The translations under genes and the position numbers were made by a program. A model generated the notes under the pieces. It saw only the letters and a list, made by a program, of their open reading frames with translations, ran no database searches and was not told where the DNA came from. 64,000 nt of DNA from Candidatus Latescibacterota bacterium (GTDB taxonomy: Bacteria; Latescibacterota; UBA2968; UBA8231): contig OZ241362.1 in the NCBI GenBank assembly GCA_965200315.1, positions 4,768,001-4,832,000 of the forward strand, written 5' to 3'. Positions 6,860-12,934 of this stretch are shown in pieces. Every line of letters starts with the position of its first letter. The first letter of the stretch is position 1.

Positions 6860-8782
6860 TCAGTAATAGTAAAACGCATAGACCAGCGCTGCCCCGCCAA
6901 CGCCGACGCAGGTGCCCAAGATCAGGCCGATGAAGAAGGGCAGCAAGGTGCGGTAGAGCCGGATGCCGCCGTAGCGCAGGGCTAGGAGTTTGATCAGCCA
7001 AGCCAAGAAAATTCCGAACCAGTCGATAGAAACGGTGTTGGTCAGGGCGATGCCCAGCCCCACCGGGTGCAGAGGCCAGCCGGCGAAGCGGTACTGGGCC
7101 AGCGCGAGCAGCCCAGCGAGGCCAGCGCCGATGGCGAGGAACACGGCTACTAGCGGCTCGGCCGGATTGGGGTTGTTGATCGAATTGGCGACCCAAGACC
7201 AGTGGTATTGTGGTGAGCTGACGAAGTACCAGCCGTAGCCGTGGAGCAGTCCGTGGCGGTATCCCAGCCATATATAGCAGACCATGGTGGTTATGAGGCC
7301 GGCGATCATGGCCGCGGACAAAAAGAGTACCAGCTTGCGCCCGCTGATCTTGAGCCGAGCGGGTTCGCAGACCTTGAAGGCGTGGGCGAGGGTGCCCATC
7401 AAAAAGAGCTGCAGGTCGGCCGTCCAGACCATGCTCAGCCCCATCGCGCTCAGCCCTTGGGCCCCAAAAGGGGCGGTGCCCACGAGATTGGTCAAAATCG
7501 GCGGCACGGAGGCCGGAGCGCGCAGACGGCCGATCCCGGTCTGGGCCAACAGGCGGGCAATGCCAAAGAAGATCACCAGCGCGACCAGCAAAAAGACGAT
7601 GCTCCAGACCAAACTCAAGCCGCTGGCCCAAAGGAAGCCAGTCATGTACGTCAGCCCGACCAGTCCGAGCAGAGCGGCGACACGCGGCGAAATCGGGCTG
7701 TCGCGGCTTGGGGCACCGCCGATGATCAGCCGCCACTGGCGACGCAGGAAGTCGCGCGACATCCACAGCGAAATCCCGACGATGCACACAAGCGAGCCAA
7801 TTTGCTGATGGGCTAGCAGCACGTTGGGTGGTGAGTGGGGCTGGGCCGGTAGCGATAGGGCAACGCCTAGCCAGTTGAGCAGTGCGCCTTCGGCGGCGAT
7901 GAGTATGTGAAAAAACCAGACGCTGAACAGCACGTTGAGGCCGACCAGATAGCTCAAGCCCACGACCAGCAGGTCGGTGTTAAGCCCGTAACTAAGCCCG
8001 AACTGACGAATCTCAATGCGACCGCCGGGAATGCCGAAGCCGTGGATGATCTCGATATCTAACACTCGGTCGAGCATGTTGACGGTTGGCAATGCCCAAG
8101 CGATGAGAAACCCCAGCCACAATAGCTTGCTTTTGAGAACGGACGCGGTGGGGTTTTCCAAGCTCTCGAGGAGCATGTTGGGGACGGCGGCAAGGGGATA
8201 CACCAAGCGCTCTTGGCGCGACCACTGGTGATGGACGAGGCTGATTAGGGCGATGCTGACCAAGAAGAAGGCCAGCATGAAGAGGTCCCACCACACGAGC
8301 GGCCCGGCCCACAAGCCCCAAGGCACGGGTGCGGCGGCCTCAGTGCCTTCAAAAAGCTGGCGGATCGCTTCGAGGTCGCGGGGGACGGCCCAGTGGGGGA
8401 TGTGCGGCCAGAGCAGGTCGGACCAGTTGTTTTCTGGGGTGGCGTAGTAAAAGACACCGGCAATGAGCGGGATGAAATAGCCGCCAAAGCCCATGGAAGG
8501 CAGCACCACGGCGACCATGAGCGCGGCATAGACCAAGGCGAAATTGGCTGGCGAGAGGCGCAAGAGCGGGTGGAGCAGGCGCAGCGCGAGGGCGACGACC
8601 ACGAGCCAGAAAATTAGGAAGATGACGCCGACGGTGTTGAAGTGATCGGTCAGCCCAGTGTAGCTTCCATAGAGAACGTAGGTCCGCACACTGGTAAAGG
8701 TCATGCAGACGGTAAAGACTAGGACGAGGCCGAAGGAGAAGCAGGTGCCGAGGAAGGAAGTGGTTGTAGGGAGACGGGGCAT
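6860..8782 (-). CDS. DUF6785/DUF6784-type polytopic membrane protein (putative transporter)
   Basis: Many TM helices; YYATPENNW, QWSRQERLVYPL, WPLHPVG, LRYGG..LY...PFFIGL. Confidence 0.75.
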   Translation of the reverse strand: MPRLPTTTSFLGTCFSFGLVLVFTVCMTFTSVRTYVLYGSYTGLTDHFNTVGVIFLIFWLVVVALALRLLHPLLRLSPANFALVYAALMVAVVLPSMGFGGYFIPLIAGVFYYATPENNWSDLLWPHIPHWAVPRDLEAIRQLFEGTEAAAPVPWGLWAGPLVWWDLFMLAFFLVSIALISLVHHQWSRQERLVYPLAAVPNMLLESLENPTASVLKSKLLWLGFLIAWALPTVNMLDRVLDIEIIHGFGIPGGRIEIRQFGLSYGLNTDLLVVGLSYLVGLNVLFSVWFFHILIAAEGALLNWLGVALSLPAQPHSPPNVLLAHQQIGSLVCIVGISLWMSRDFLRRQWRLIIGGAPSRDSPISPRVAALLGLVGLTYMTGFLWASGLSLVWSIVFLLVALVIFFGIARLLAQTGIGRLRAPASVPPILTNLVGTAPFGAQGLSAMGLSMVWTADLQLFLMGTLAHAFKVCEPARLKISGRKLVLFLSAAMIAGLITTMVCYIWLGYRHGLLHGYGWYFVSSPQYHWSWVANSINNPNPAEPLVAVFLAIGAGLAGLLALAQYRFAGWPLHPVGLGIALTNTVSIDWFGIFLAWLIKLLALRYGGIRLYRTLLPFFIGLILGTCVGVGGAALVYAFYYY

Positions 8783-9119
8783 GGACGAATTGCGAGTTAA
8801 AATAAAAAAATGAGCTTCTTTATATCTTTAATTAAGAGAATAAATGAGGGGAGCGTAGGCAATGATGCACAGATACAGCATCTCGCCCCGCACTTGGCAA
8901 GCCTTAACACGGGCACAAAAAACGCTTGACTTGGAGGGATTCCCTATATGCAATTATCTAAATATACAGAAGTTATCCTAATACATAGCTGATTGTCGAG
9001 GCATTAGAGGCTTATAAACTCCTGATTCAAGACGCGCTCGATTTCTTAACGATTGTTGAGGCATGTCCAGCAAAGCCGTTATGAAACTGTATCGACTCCT
9101 TCACCCATAAGCAAAAGCC

Positions 9120-10526
9120 GTGAAGAGAAATTCTTTGCCAAGTATGTTACCTAGACCAGTCGGGCGGCAACGAGAGGTCTTGTACCTCCCAGCTGATGGC
9201 CATACAGTAGTGCTCGGTACCGCTGGGAGCGGCAAGACGACGCTCTCTATTCTCCGCGCTCTTTATTTGTCTGATCTGTCCACAGACCACGGTGGGCGGA
9301 CGCTGCTGGTGACGTTCAACCGATGTTTGGTCACCTATATGGAACATCTGGCTGGAACAATTCAGCGACCTGTGGACGTCCGAAATTATCATCGCTTTGC
9401 ATTGGGTTATCTCAACTACAGAGGCAAATTGCCACCGGAGAGCATCTGTAGCCCCGAAGAACGGTTGCGCTATATAAGGCTTGCAGTGAGCCAAGCGCGA
9501 GCCGATGGTGTCCAGAGTCCGATGCTACGACGTTCAGAGGAATTCCTCAATGAAGAGTTCCAATGGATTCAGCAGCATGGTATTGCGAGCAAGGAGGATT
9601 ATGTCGCGGCGGAACGTATAGGCCAGATGGCAACCCGAGTTACAAGAGATGAGCGCCCTTTACTATTCGATCTTTACAATCGATACTTGAATCAGCGGCA
9701 GCAAGGCGGCAAGTCGTACGACTGGGACGACCTCGCCAGTACCGTACTCCGAGAGCTTCAGTTCGACCAGAGTAAACGCCTCTATCGCCACGTAATTATT
9801 GACGAAGGCCAAGACTTCTCGCCCGAGATGCTGCGCTCACTCGCAGCAGCCATACCAGAAAACGGAAGTCTCACTTTCTTTGGTGATATTGCTCAGCAGA
9901 TATACGGGCACCGGATGTCTTGGCGAAGTGCTGGACTTACTGCGACGAATGTCTGGCTATTTAAGGAAAACTACCGCAACACCAAGCAGATTTCCCAACT
10001 CGCGCTCGCGCTCGCAGCCATGCCCAATTTTCCGGATGATCCGGACTTGGTCGAGCCAACGGCTCCGGTTGCCGACGGGCCATCTCCGGCACTTGTGCCG
10101 CTGGCAAGCGAGTCGGAAGAGCGAGAATTTGTCGTTTCGCGAGCGGCCGAATCAGCCCAGACGGGAACAGTTGCCATTTTGTTCAGGACGCGAGATCAAG
10201 AGAGGGCTTTTCTACAGCACCCCCCAAGCGAGGCGACGCGGTTCGATCGTGAACTGAAACAATGGCTAAGTGGTCCGGGGCTTTTCTATGGCACATATCA
10301 CGCAGCCAAGGGGCTGGAGTTTGATACAGTGTTCCTGCCGCTCCTGTCGGACAAATGTTGGCCCCATCCGCCCGACGTTGAACTTTTGGGGGAACAAGAA
10401 GCGGCGGCCCGAAACTCGCGCCTTCTTTACGTTGGGATCACGCGGGCCAGATCGACGCTCGTACTCACATACTCGGGGTGCAGGACGGCACTCTTACCGG
10501 AAACAACAGGGCTGTATCAAGAATGA
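9120..10526 (+). CDS. UvrD/Rep-like superfamily 1 helicase (compact)
   Basis: GTAGSGKTT, IIDEGQDF, FGDIAQQIY, ENYRNT, TYHAAKGLEFD, LYVGITRAR; alternative start ATG 9144. Confidence 0.92.
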   Translation: MKRNSLPSMLPRPVGRQREVLYLPADGHTVVLGTAGSGKTTLSILRALYLSDLSTDHGGRTLLVTFNRCLVTYMEHLAGTIQRPVDVRNYHRFALGYLNYRGKLPPESICSPEERLRYIRLAVSQARADGVQSPMLRRSEEFLNEEFQWIQQHGIASKEDYVAAERIGQMATRVTRDERPLLFDLYNRYLNQRQQGGKSYDWDDLASTVLRELQFDQSKRLYRHVIIDEGQDFSPEMLRSLAAAIPENGSLTFFGDIAQQIYGHRMSWRSAGLTATNVWLFKENYRNTKQISQLALALAAMPNFPDDPDLVEPTAPVADGPSPALVPLASESEEREFVVSRAAESAQTGTVAILFRTRDQERAFLQHPPSEATRFDRELKQWLSGPGLFYGTYHAAKGLEFDTVFLPLLSDKCWPHPPDVELLGEQEAAARNSRLLYVGITRARSTLVLTYSGCRTALLPETTGLYQE

Positions 10527-11233
10527 CCGAGACGATAGCTTCGATACAGGCCAGCGCGGTGTGCCGAGGAATCACACGCCTTTGCCATTTCACGCCTTCT
10601 CACAATCTTGGACACATCGCAGAGGATCGCGTAGGGATTCTCGCCTCGAAGCATCTTGGGGAGAATGAAAAGGCTGTCTTCAATCCGACGGACTCAGGGC
10701 GCCTAGATGGTTATCCAGACCATGTGTGCTGCTCGATCCAGTACCCGAACGCTTGGTACTTCAGAAAAGCTCGCAGTCGGGGACCGCTATTTCGAGATTG
10801 GGTCATACTTCTAATCAAGCCTCGATACCTGTGGCAGGCTGGCGCGAAGTTCTGTCCCCGCAATGCGGCGGCCGAGCACGGGAGGCTTGTCAATGAAGGT
10901 GCAAAGGCATTCGAGGAGTTATTTGCCGACACCGGCGAAAGTACTTGCACGTACAGGCGTGACCGTCTTCATCCTGATTTCCTTCCTACCGACGAACAAG
11001 CCGAGGTGTTGATTCCGGATCACATCCGACGGGTAGATGTGATCGGCATCGCTGTTTGCGATGACGCACAGGCCCAACGGGAAGTGGCTCGGCTGAAGCT
11101 ACTTGGCCAGAGTCTATCACCGATCTTGATTGTTCCCGAGTTTTTCGACCCGAATAAGCTCAGTCAATTGCTACGTGCTGGTCGGGTTCCGGTCGAGCGC
11201 GAGCATCAACAAGGAGACCCTCATGGCCGATAA
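10523..11233 (+). CDS. darT: DarT (DUF4433) DNA ADP-ribosyltransferase, DarT1-like
   Basis: RGITRLCHFTPSHNL, DSGRLDG..CCSIQYPN, WVIL, FCPRNAA, TDEQAEVLI catalytic Glu; ATGA overlap with helicase stop. Confidence 0.85.
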   Translation: MTETIASIQASAVCRGITRLCHFTPSHNLGHIAEDRVGILASKHLGENEKAVFNPTDSGRLDGYPDHVCCSIQYPNAWYFRKARSRGPLFRDWVILLIKPRYLWQAGAKFCPRNAAAEHGRLVNEGAKAFEELFADTGESTCTYRRDRLHPDFLPTDEQAEVLIPDHIRRVDVIGIAVCDDAQAQREVARLKLLGQSLSPILIVPEFFDPNKLSQLLRAGRVPVEREHQQGDPHGR

Positions 11234-12890
11234 CAGCGATAGCCAAGCGTACGAACCGATCTTGCCGTTGCAGGCCAAAGCCGAGGGTGCCTTTCTTGCG
11301 CTCGCTGCTGGCGACGCGCTGGGCTGGCCCCAAGAAATAGCTCGAAACGTCCAAGGCAACCCTAAGAACAAAGGGGCACATGTAGAGTTCAAGGGATGGA
11401 CCCGGCGCAGTGGTGGGCGATTACGATCCTATGAGGAAAATATCTACGCCGGAAACTACAGCGACGATACGCAACTTACTCTCGCGGTCGCACGGAGCAG
11501 AACGGACCATGGCCTTGAATGGTGGAAAGCGTTTACGAAGGTGGAACTTCCGCTCTGGACGCTGTACGAACGGGGCGGGGGTGGGGCCACGAAGCGCGCG
11601 GCTAAAGCATGGGGCGAAGGTACATCTCCTTGGATGTCGGACAAGAACAATGGTGTTCGCCGATACTTTGAGGCTGGCGGCAACGGGGTCGCCATGCGTG
11701 TCCTACCCCATGCCTTGTTTCTCGCTGGGCAGGAAGATCCCGCCGACCTTATGTACGATGTCATTCTCGACGGCTTGGCTACCCATGGCCATCCTCGCGC
11801 ACTCGTCGGAGCAACCGTATATGCCTATGCCGCGTGGGTGCTGACCCGCAGGAGTGGTACGCTCCGGTTTGGCGAATTACTAGATATGCTGATTGATGCG
11901 TCACCTATATGGAGCAAATTCCCCAAGTCGGATCGCGATGGCGGGACTTGGTTTCCGGCCGCTAAAGGTGCGATAGGCGATCGGTACGAGTTGATTTGGG
12001 ACCAAACGATTGAGGAGATGCGAGAGTTACTCGCGAAAGCGCAAAGAGGGGTCCAAGCTGGTGCGCTCGCGGACGACCATGTGGTCTTGAAAGAACTAGG
12101 ATGTTTTGGTCGTTCTAAGGGTGCAGGAACCGTTAGCGCGGCTGCCGCCGTGTACCTTGTCGCACGGCATGCAGCACAGCCGGTACAGGCGATACTCAGA
12201 GCTGCCTTTGAGCAGGGCGCGGACACAGACACACTCGCGGCCATGACCGGAGGGCTGATGGGATGCTTGGCGGGTGTCGAATGGCTGCCGGCACCGTGGC
12301 TAAAAGTCCAGGATTCCGAATACCTCCGGAACATCGCCAGCCAAATTGCCTTAGGGCCGGACGGCGCGTCCCAGCATCCTGTAGAACCTCTTGCAAACCC
12401 TCAAGCTATCTTCTCTGACCTTGCTCGGAACGGAGACCGCGAAGTAGTCCTTGGCGGCTTAGAACGAGTTCGGGCAACGCCTCTGCCGATCCCAAAGCCA
12501 ATTGCCCGATCAATCACGGTCCAAGCATGGCAGCTAAAAACTTCCGATGGCCAGACCATGTATGTCACCAAGGTGGACCATTTGCGGGACGACAGGGCGA
12601 GCCATACGCTGGAGCCAACCCGTCCTACAACTCCCAAGCCAGCCAGCGCGAACGAGGCGGTGGAATCCGTTGGGGTCTCAAAGAACGCGCTCTACGTTGA
12701 GTTTTGCCGACAACTGCAAAGCCATCTAGAATCTAGGGCAATGAAAACCAAAGAAATAGAGAGTGCTTTGGACCTCGTTCCAAGCCAAGTCAAAAAATGG
12801 CTGAGCCGAGCCGAACAGGATGGACGGATTCGACGGATATCCAAAAAGCCCGCAGAATTCGCGCTATGTGACCAGAAGTTCCTGCAGTAA
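11223..12890 (+). CDS. ADP-ribosylglycohydrolase (DraG/ARH family) with C-terminal extension and winged-helix domain
   Basis: AAGDALG, YSDDTQLT, GNGVAMR, THGHP, ADTDTLAAMTGGL; RBS AAGGAG; 11-bp overlap with darT. Confidence 0.9.
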   Translation: MADNSDSQAYEPILPLQAKAEGAFLALAAGDALGWPQEIARNVQGNPKNKGAHVEFKGWTRRSGGRLRSYEENIYAGNYSDDTQLTLAVARSRTDHGLEWWKAFTKVELPLWTLYERGGGGATKRAAKAWGEGTSPWMSDKNNGVRRYFEAGGNGVAMRVLPHALFLAGQEDPADLMYDVILDGLATHGHPRALVGATVYAYAAWVLTRRSGTLRFGELLDMLIDASPIWSKFPKSDRDGGTWFPAAKGAIGDRYELIWDQTIEEMRELLAKAQRGVQAGALADDHVVLKELGCFGRSKGAGTVSAAAAVYLVARHAAQPVQAILRAAFEQGADTDTLAAMTGGLMGCLAGVEWLPAPWLKVQDSEYLRNIASQIALGPDGASQHPVEPLANPQAIFSDLARNGDREVVLGGLERVRATPLPIPKPIARSITVQAWQLKTSDGQTMYVTKVDHLRDDRASHTLEPTRPTTPKPASANEAVESVGVSKNALYVEFCRQLQSHLESRAMKTKEIESALDLVPSQVKKWLSRAEQDGRIRRISKKPAEFALCDQKFLQ

Positions 12891-12934
12891 AGATGTCCTT
12901 CCGAGTAGCAGTCAACCGTCGTTAGGGCGGTAAC

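Follow-up and report, generated by a model that had tools for sequence, protein, structure and literature searches.

Why should a DNA helicase, an ADP-ribosyltransferase of the DarT family and an ADP-ribosylglycohydrolase (ARH) be encoded side by side, and what would they do together? The question is raised by a stretch of 64,000 nucleotides from the genome of a Candidatus Latescibacterota bacterium (contig OZ241362.1, positions 4,768,001 to 4,832,000; hereafter the window, to which our coordinates refer), in which three co-oriented and overlapping open reading frames (ORFs) lie on the + strand at 9120-10526, 10523-11233 and 11223-12890. The answer we propose is that they very probably form a tripartite toxin-antitoxin and anti-phage operon of the DarHTG type. 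A first-pass annotation, made from the letters of the window, had taken the operon for a candidate new DarTG-type system; its functional reading proves largely right, and its claim of novelty fails because the triad had already been catalogued, as Liu-DS3 or TgaH-DarTG in a preprint of 8 December 2025 (bioRxiv 10.64898/2025.12.08.692795) and as DarHTG (Liu-DS3; DarH, DarT, DarG3) in a paper of 8 April 2026 (Nucleic Acids Res 2026;54(6):gkag308, PMC13069673). No further paper on a helicase-DarT-ARH triad was found in the literature library searched; the terms 'DarT3' and 'DarG3' of a Vibrio cholerae preprint were discarded, being citation superscripts and not protein names.

According to the available text of the DarHTG paper (PMC13069673), the system combines a UvrD-like helicase lacking the 2B domain, a DarT protein and the ADP-ribosylglycohydrolase-like DarG3, protects E. 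coli from T4, T5, T7 and SSL_2009a, and depends for this defence on the active site of DarT as well as on the ATP site of the helicase; the same text reports no biochemistry on the mark, the substrate of the eraser or the extra domains. All four architectural features of the published system are found in the window: a co-oriented operon that runs from helicase through DarT to hydrolase, here with overlaps of 4 and 11 bases; a helicase which, like DarH, appears from its alignment to be without 2B; a DarT homologue, whose active site is intact here; and a hydrolase that is neither a macrodomain nor a NADAR protein but has the ADP-ribosylglycohydrolase fold, with an antitoxin role that is predicted here. 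It is on this likeness of architecture, and not of sequence, that we consider the assignment of the operon to the DarHTG type highly likely. The prototype comes from E. coli, whereas the host in the present case is a member of the Latescibacterota.

The coupling of the three genes can be read directly from the DNA. The sequence ATGA at 10523-10526 joins the end of the helicase gene to the start of the DarT gene with a 4-base overlap, the DarT and ARH genes share 11 bases (11223-11233), and a GGAGA motif stands 6 bases 5' of the ARH start. The GC content of the operon (0.51-0.59) is below that of its flanks (0.60-0.66), and it falls to 0.458 in the bin at 8750-9249 that covers the leader. The first-pass annotation had described this coupling, the lower GC content and the AT-rich leader, and it had called for a profile search of the three families; the UvrD, DarT and ADP_ribosyl_GH families are indeed all matched by Pfam. 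None of the three proteins scores above the cut-off of any NCBIfam model.

The first gene (9120-10526, + strand) starts with GTG and encodes a DarH-like superfamily 1 helicase of the UvrD/PcrA type, 468 residues long, which is matched by the Pfam families UvrD-helicase (5.5e-15) and UvrD_C (8.1e-19) and in which the Walker A sequence GSGKT and a DEGQD box are seen. Its residues 15-363 align with residues 12-362 of E. coli UvrD, and its residues 362-455 with UvrD 532-618; the two aligned pieces are contiguous, so that UvrD 363-531 is left unmatched. Since the published description places the 2B domain in this region of UvrD, the helicase is predicted to be without it. The best PADLOC models for the protein are NERD+UvrD (2.2e-24, in which only the UvrD part matches) and GajB of the Gabija system, many models of which match at 2e-18 and below. 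A fragment of Gabija was nevertheless rejected as an explanation, as no GajA-like nuclease was found in the operon or in the ten flanking genes scanned.

The second gene (10523-11233, + strand) encodes a DarT-family ADP-ribosyltransferase of 236 residues, the predicted toxin, which matches the DarT Pfam family PF14487 over 200 of its 201 profile positions (6.9e-15, 55.7 bits for a cut-off of 22.5). When the single protein was compared with all chains of the PDB, only E. coli C7 DarT1 (8baq) matched, at 4.4e-23; a profile of 17 DarT sequences found the same protein at 2.4e-29, and no DarT2 chain of the PDB matched this profile even at E<=10. The transferase thus appears nearer to the guanine-specific DarT1 than to DarT2, as the first-pass annotation had supposed. 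The DarT1 residues named in PMC11543638 were mapped through the alignment with 8baq, in which the chain numbering is that of the paper plus one. H17, F18 and T19, R52, D54 and S63 of DarT1 then correspond to H22, F23 and T24, R60, D62 and S71 of the window protein, and F72, N104, Q150 and E152 to F80, N114, Q159 and E161. In DarT1, according to the available text of that paper, N104 coordinates the base, R52 and D54 form a proton relay, Q150 contacts the phosphate of the target nucleotide and E152 is catalytic (PMC11543638). Most of the mapped counterparts are invariant across 32 DarT homologues, among them the catalytic glutamate E161 and H22-F23-T24, and little or no variation is seen in the motifs HFT, D..R.DG, SIQYPN, RNAA and QAE. 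By analogy with DarT1, our best guess for the target base is guanine.

The third gene (11223-12890, + strand) encodes a protein of 555 residues, the DarG3-like predicted antitoxin, which matches the Pfam family ADP_ribosyl_GH (PF03747) at 5.1e-37 and whose best sequence match among solved structures is DraG (1.1e-12). An AlphaFold2 model built with 32 homologues (mean predicted local distance difference test score, pLDDT, of 86; predicted template modelling score, pTM, of 0.78) suggests four parts: an ARH domain of DraG fold (residues 16-376; 11268-12350, + strand), a small domain of one helix and four beta strands (residues 395-453; 12405-12581, + strand), a disordered linker (residues 457-486) and a C-terminal winged helix-turn-helix (residues 487-548; 12681-12866, + strand). 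For the ARH domain, the best Foldseek matches were ARH3 (E 1.4e-09, template modelling score 0.71 over the target), MJ1187, Tri1 (6dre) and DraG, and 32 ARH homologues show no variation in the GGNG motif or in the motifs of the metal site, namely D31, S80-D81-D82-T83 and D334-T335-D336-T337. The assignment of the eraser to the ARH/DraG family, made in the first-pass annotation, therefore stands, as does its statement that the catalytic motifs are intact: HFT, QAE, SDD, GNG and DTDT are all invariant or nearly so, and Walker A and the DEGQD box are present. A prediction of the ARH-DarT complex gave a score of 0.00 without control runs and is neutral on binding.

Newly described here are two additions to the ARH domain, namely the beta domain and an exchangeable C-terminal module. 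The beta domain is modelled with pLDDT values of 84-94 per block, carries a nearly invariant W...GQ signature (W436, G443 and Q444) in the 32 homologues and was detected by tblastn in 47 of 60 related loci; Foldseek, run with the 170 C-terminal residues modelled on their own, found no structural match to it and nothing at all at E<=0.001. The weak matches of this search fall on the winged helix only (ArsR/SmtB, MarR and Z-alpha, E 7e-3 to 5e-2), and the PADLOC model PsyrA matches residues 468-544 at 2.4e-07. Searched with representative modules by tblastn, 25 of the 60 loci end with the winged helix of the window and 28 with an alternative module, which Pfam assigns to Glyoxalase/VOC (PF00903) in all four such proteins scanned; the remaining seven show neither end, two of them stopping at contig edges and one having its own type. 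The C-terminal module of the protein thus appears to be swappable, either winged helix or glyoxalase-like, and the predicted antitoxin would be made of three parts with two alternative ends. Full-length ARH partners are 466-866 residues long. The longest ORF, at L016:7701-10301, encodes 866 residues, about 300 more than the others, and Pfam sees in it the ARH domain only.

Could the three genes have come together by chance? Of 1530 candidates, 960 are homologous to the DarT protein at E<=1e-3, and the best 120 of these 960 are all at least 62% identical to it. To collect related loci, one genome per species was scanned with two conserved exact DarT peptides, which gave 60 distinct loci; divergent branches lie outside this sample because the peptides are exact and belong to the subfamily. 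Neighbours were counted by tblastn with the window proteins. The ARH gene lies directly downstream of DarT in 59 of the 60 loci, the last one stopping at a contig edge, and a helicase gene is the immediate upstream neighbour in 59. In 50 loci the helicase is intact, and there the three genes, all intact, stand on one strand in the order seen in the window. With such linkage the triad cannot be put down to chance adjacency, an explanation we reject, and the conservation elsewhere for which the first-pass annotation had wanted a neighbourhood survey is found. The helicase gene is defective or missing in nine loci (frameshifted in L002 and L014, stopped in L025 and L052, interrupted in L027 and L035, truncated in L030 and L034, absent in L038), and in L044 it is cut by the contig end. 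In L027, L035, L034, L052 and L038 the ARH gene is intact beside an interrupted, truncated or missing helicase, and DarT is N-terminally short in L034 and L038. Loss of the helicase with retention of the ARH is the pattern of decay expected if the toxin-antitoxin pair were addictive and the helicase were not.

The triad is found in Latescibacterota, Acidobacteriota, Pseudomonadota, Cyanobacteriota, Planctomycetota, Chloroflexota, Spirochaetota, Lentisphaerota and Myxococcota and in one Nitrosopumilaceae bin, and the helicase-DarT-ARH family can be described as large, spread over many phyla and unusually conserved. The archaeal copy (L037), on a 99 kb contig of a metagenome-assembled genome, encodes proteins 69-73% identical to those of the window, with DarT split in two frames; it reflects either a cross-domain transfer or a binning error. 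Extra copies stand beside the triad in a few loci: a second helicase and a DarT fragment at L029:3573-5213, a second helicase at L058:10010-11389 and a second ARH at L021:13622-14704.

The family is also carried by plasmids. A tblastn search with DarT gave 34 plasmid records, of which 11 were examined. The three-gene row is present in four, namely a Ralstonia megaplasmid and plasmids of Streptomyces sp. NBC_01220 (whose first gene was counted from its annotation as a '3'-5' exonuclease' alone), Rhodococcus sp. WAY2 and S. tsukubensis, and integrase, HigBA and transposase genes adjoin plasmid copies of the triad. Six others of the 11 hold a two-gene unit of DarT and a NADAR-DarT1 antitoxin; since this partner accompanies all six, the window DarT retrieves relatives of the DarT1 type and not of the DarT2 type. 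In the one remaining record, plasmid pC052_C of Nostoc sp. C052 (NZ_CP040275.1, L075), a large AAA-domain protein is followed by a 531-residue protein with a C-terminal DarT and by an ARH of 505 residues, and this DarT-ARH row lies directly upstream of a BREX pglZ gene. A plasmid of Deinococcus sp. QL22 (L076) encodes an 846-residue protein with a C-terminal DarT between genes for an N-6 DNA methylase and a NADAR-DarT1 antitoxin.

The DarT phylogeny that the first-pass annotation had called for was obtained as a maximum-likelihood tree of 43 rows, unrooted, without a DarT2 row and with several long branches (5.67 for S. tsukubensis). Within these bounds it suggests that the helicase-linked DarTs are a group apart from the NADAR-linked DarT1 proteins: 36 helicase-linked DarTs fall on one side of a branch supported at 99/95, the six NADAR-linked ones lie behind another branch (99/98), and the Nostoc DarT stands between both groups. 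The DarT of the S. tsukubensis triad, only 28.6% identical, is still found on the helicase-linked side. The branching of the tree departs from taxonomy.

Compared with the other systems that act through ADP-ribose, the operon resembles DarTG1 of E. coli C7 in that DarT1 is the nearest solved relative of its transferase and most catalytic and base-coordinating residues have counterparts; it differs in that an ARH takes the place of the NADAR antitoxin, a helicase gene is added, and the equivalents of M71, K74 and Y75 are changed. DarTG2 likewise consists of a DNA ADP-ribosylating toxin and an enzymatic antitoxin with an extra C-terminal part; its DarG is a macrodomain protein, whereas this operon has no macrodomain and its transferase matches no DarT2 chain. 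The first-pass annotation had noticed neither a NADAR nor a macrodomain partner, and the operon indeed has neither, the gene downstream of DarT being the ARH gene. The genome, a single contig of 5.36 Mb, has no DarT match and no ARH match besides the one of each kind in the operon (at 4.78 Mb), and its one Macro match is at 2.78 Mb, about 2 Mb away; a search of the genome for NADAR-DarT1 (PF22397) gave no match, and as the control genomes gave none either, this does not show a genome-wide absence. With ARH1, ARH3, Tri1, MJ1187 and DraG the third protein shares the hydrolase fold and the di-metal site motifs. It differs from DraG and Tri1 in scoring far under the cut-offs of the NCBIfam equivalogs (65.3 bits for a cut-off of 337 with DraG TIGR02662, 20 for 490 with Tri1), in having DarT as partner instead of DraT or Tre1, and in its 170 extra C-terminal residues. 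A DraT/DraG nitrogenase switch was rejected on the DraG score and on the identity of the partner.

The model we propose starts from what was observed at the locus and among its relatives: the structure of the genes, the identity of the domains, the intact motifs, the conservation of the triad and its mobility. From these we infer the DNA target and its base, the reversal by the ARH and the roles of the helicase and of the C-terminal domains; protection from phages, with its dependence on the catalytic site of DarT and the ATP site of the helicase, has been demonstrated by others for an E. coli system that is built alike. DarT would be the toxin which, from NAD+, puts ADP-ribose on a base of single-stranded DNA, most likely guanine, and thereby blocks replication. 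The ARH protein would be the antitoxin, of the DarG3 type, hydrolyzing the mark in uninfected cells. Its winged-helix end would probably bind DNA, either for autoregulation of the operon or for tethering the enzyme to DNA, and the alternative VOC end suggests a ligand-sensing variant. The 2B-less helicase would use ATP on DNA and be needed for defence, exposing single-stranded DNA for DarT or sensing the intermediates of phage replication. Such a helicase has a rationale, because DarT1 acts on single-stranded DNA and, in the available text of PMC11543638, no activity was detected on double-stranded DNA.

Which atom is marked by DarT, and could base-linked ADP-ribose be removed by an ARH fold? 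To our knowledge, no ARH-fold enzyme has been shown to remove a guanine-N2-type ADP-ribose from a DNA base. The first-pass annotation reasoned that the guanidino nitrogen of arginine may be chemically akin to the N2 of guanine. We put forward, tentatively and with somewhat less than an even chance of being right, that the ARH is a true DNA-base de-ADP-ribosylase for a guanine-N2-type mark, that its beta domain and C-terminal module form a switch releasing DarT, and that the helicase feeds single-stranded DNA. If an ARH-fold enzyme were to erase base-linked ADP-ribose, the known chemistry of the ARH superfamily would be extended.

Several observations weigh against the DarHTG-type reading. Common descent with DarHTG is argued from architecture; blastn of the operon in its distant mode, run against the 5,426 complete genomes of E. 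coli, found no match, and Escherichia is missing from the 34 plasmid DarT records. The PADLOC DarT model gives only 22.5 bits, and no model of PADLOC-DB 2.0.0 (2023), a release that does not contain a DarHTG system, covers the ARH domain, here or in three other scanned ARH proteins. The nine loci with a defective or absent helicase and a retained ARH fit poorly with an indispensable helicase, unless these copies are in decay or reflect faults of assembly. None of the ten genes scanned in the flanks is a defence gene, their products being of the types GH116, epimerase, aldo-keto reductase, DUF6785, PMT_2/TPR and FG-GAP; no integrase was found in the flanks and no tRNA within 1-30000. With no sequence link to E. 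coli obtained, DarT, an ARH and a UvrD-like helicase might have been assembled independently, giving a separate and unnamed variant that only resembles E. coli DarHTG. Such an assembly would fit the available statement that DarHTG homologues are commonest in Thermodesulfobacteriota and Bacteroidota (PMC13069673), whereas the 60 loci include no Bacteroidota record, and it would fit the Nostoc plasmid, where a DarT fusion and an ARH are paired with another NTPase, the AAA protein. On the other hand, fishing with two exact subfamily peptides excluded divergent branches by design, the distant S. tsukubensis triad still groups with the helicase-linked DarTs, and the operon shares the whole of the DarHTG architecture, so that independent assembly seems to us improbable.

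The target of the transferase is a further point of doubt. The counterpart of DarT1 M71 is a tyrosine here, that of K74 is variable and that of Y75 is an alanine; in DarT1 it is K74 and Y75 that recognise guanine by its O6/N7 edge, as described in the available text of PMC11543638, and guanine specificity is therefore not assured. Furthermore, in the available parts of PMC11833690 and PMC12879935, the ARH-fold enzymes tested left guanosine-linked ADP-ribose on RNA, and ARH1 and ARH3 were inactive or marginal on the thymidine-linked form, so that either the ARH of the window has a new specificity or DarT marks something else. The transferase might thus modify a protein, for example an arginine of the helicase in the manner of DraT/DraG, or an RNA or DNA end, and not a DNA base, with the ARH reversing the reaction. 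This would agree with the known ARH substrates, which are arginine- or serine-linked ADP-ribose on proteins and phosphate-linked nucleic-acid ends, and with DraG as the best solved match of the ARH protein. It agrees less well with the invariance of the counterparts of N104, R52/D54, Q150 and the catalytic glutamate, with a DNA-modifying enzyme as the sole solved relative of the transferase, or with the low DraG score and the lack of a DraT-like gene in the operon, and we hold it to be unlikely. The same enzymes might also serve the host in the control of growth or replication, DNA being reversibly ADP-ribosylated under stress, without any part in phage defence. The flanks devoid of defence genes, the single syntenic site in five related genomes, the unusual conservation of the DarT family and a role of this kind reported for DarTG in mycobacteria (in the available text of PMC12170906) speak for it; the patchy distribution in the genus, the existence of an empty site, the plasmid copies beside integrase, HigBA and transposase genes, the transfer between phyla implied by the DarT tree and the defence against phages provided by the like-built system of E. 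coli (available text of PMC13069673) all speak against it, and its probability appears to us very low.

Returning to the operon as a DarHTG-type cassette, its site in the host genus bears on its mobility. The same site, between a DUF6785 gene and a PMT_2/TPR gene, holds the triad in five Latescibacterota genomes, where identity is 81-89% for the proteins of the triad and 64-95% for those of the flanks. Among 24 other genomes of the genus, 5 have a close orthologue (81-87% identical). In three complete genomes of the genus without the triad (L064, L065 and L066), the two flanking genes abut: the flanks align up to 8758 and again from 12974, with 93 bases between, and each flanking gene differs in its first codons. 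The segment 8759-12973, which comprises the cassette and its leader, is accordingly variable: in this genus the insertion of the cassette at a single site is either present or absent, an observation that is likewise new. Its patchy distribution, the empty site, the GC content below that of the flanks and the disagreement of the DarT tree with taxonomy show that it is mobile. In another genome without the triad (G011; L063:3569-4211, equivalent to 8783-12934 of the window), the site holds an ORF of 93 residues followed by a 144-residue retropepsin-like aspartyl protease (PF13975, 1.8e-10); the site is thus small and variable, and at least three states of it occur in the genus.

The leader (8783-9119, + strand) separates the helicase gene from the divergently oriented DUF6785 gene; the leaders of L001-L004, and L063 as well, can be aligned to it. 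The L063 copy, 77% identical, holds the intact 93-residue ORF, which belongs to no known family; in L003 a version of 113 residues extends into the helicase start, and in the window the same frame stops after about 14 codons. Because of the intact version in L063, the AT-rich leader is read as a decayed piece of a small ORF. No sigma-70-like promoter was found on its + strand, terminator-like sites were no commoner in it than in shuffled sequences, and no Rfam family matched it. The neighbouring gene (6860-8782, - strand) encodes a DUF6785/DUF6784 membrane protein of a very greatly expanded family, with 25 to 53 matches at E<=1e-50 in each of the genomes of L063-L067.

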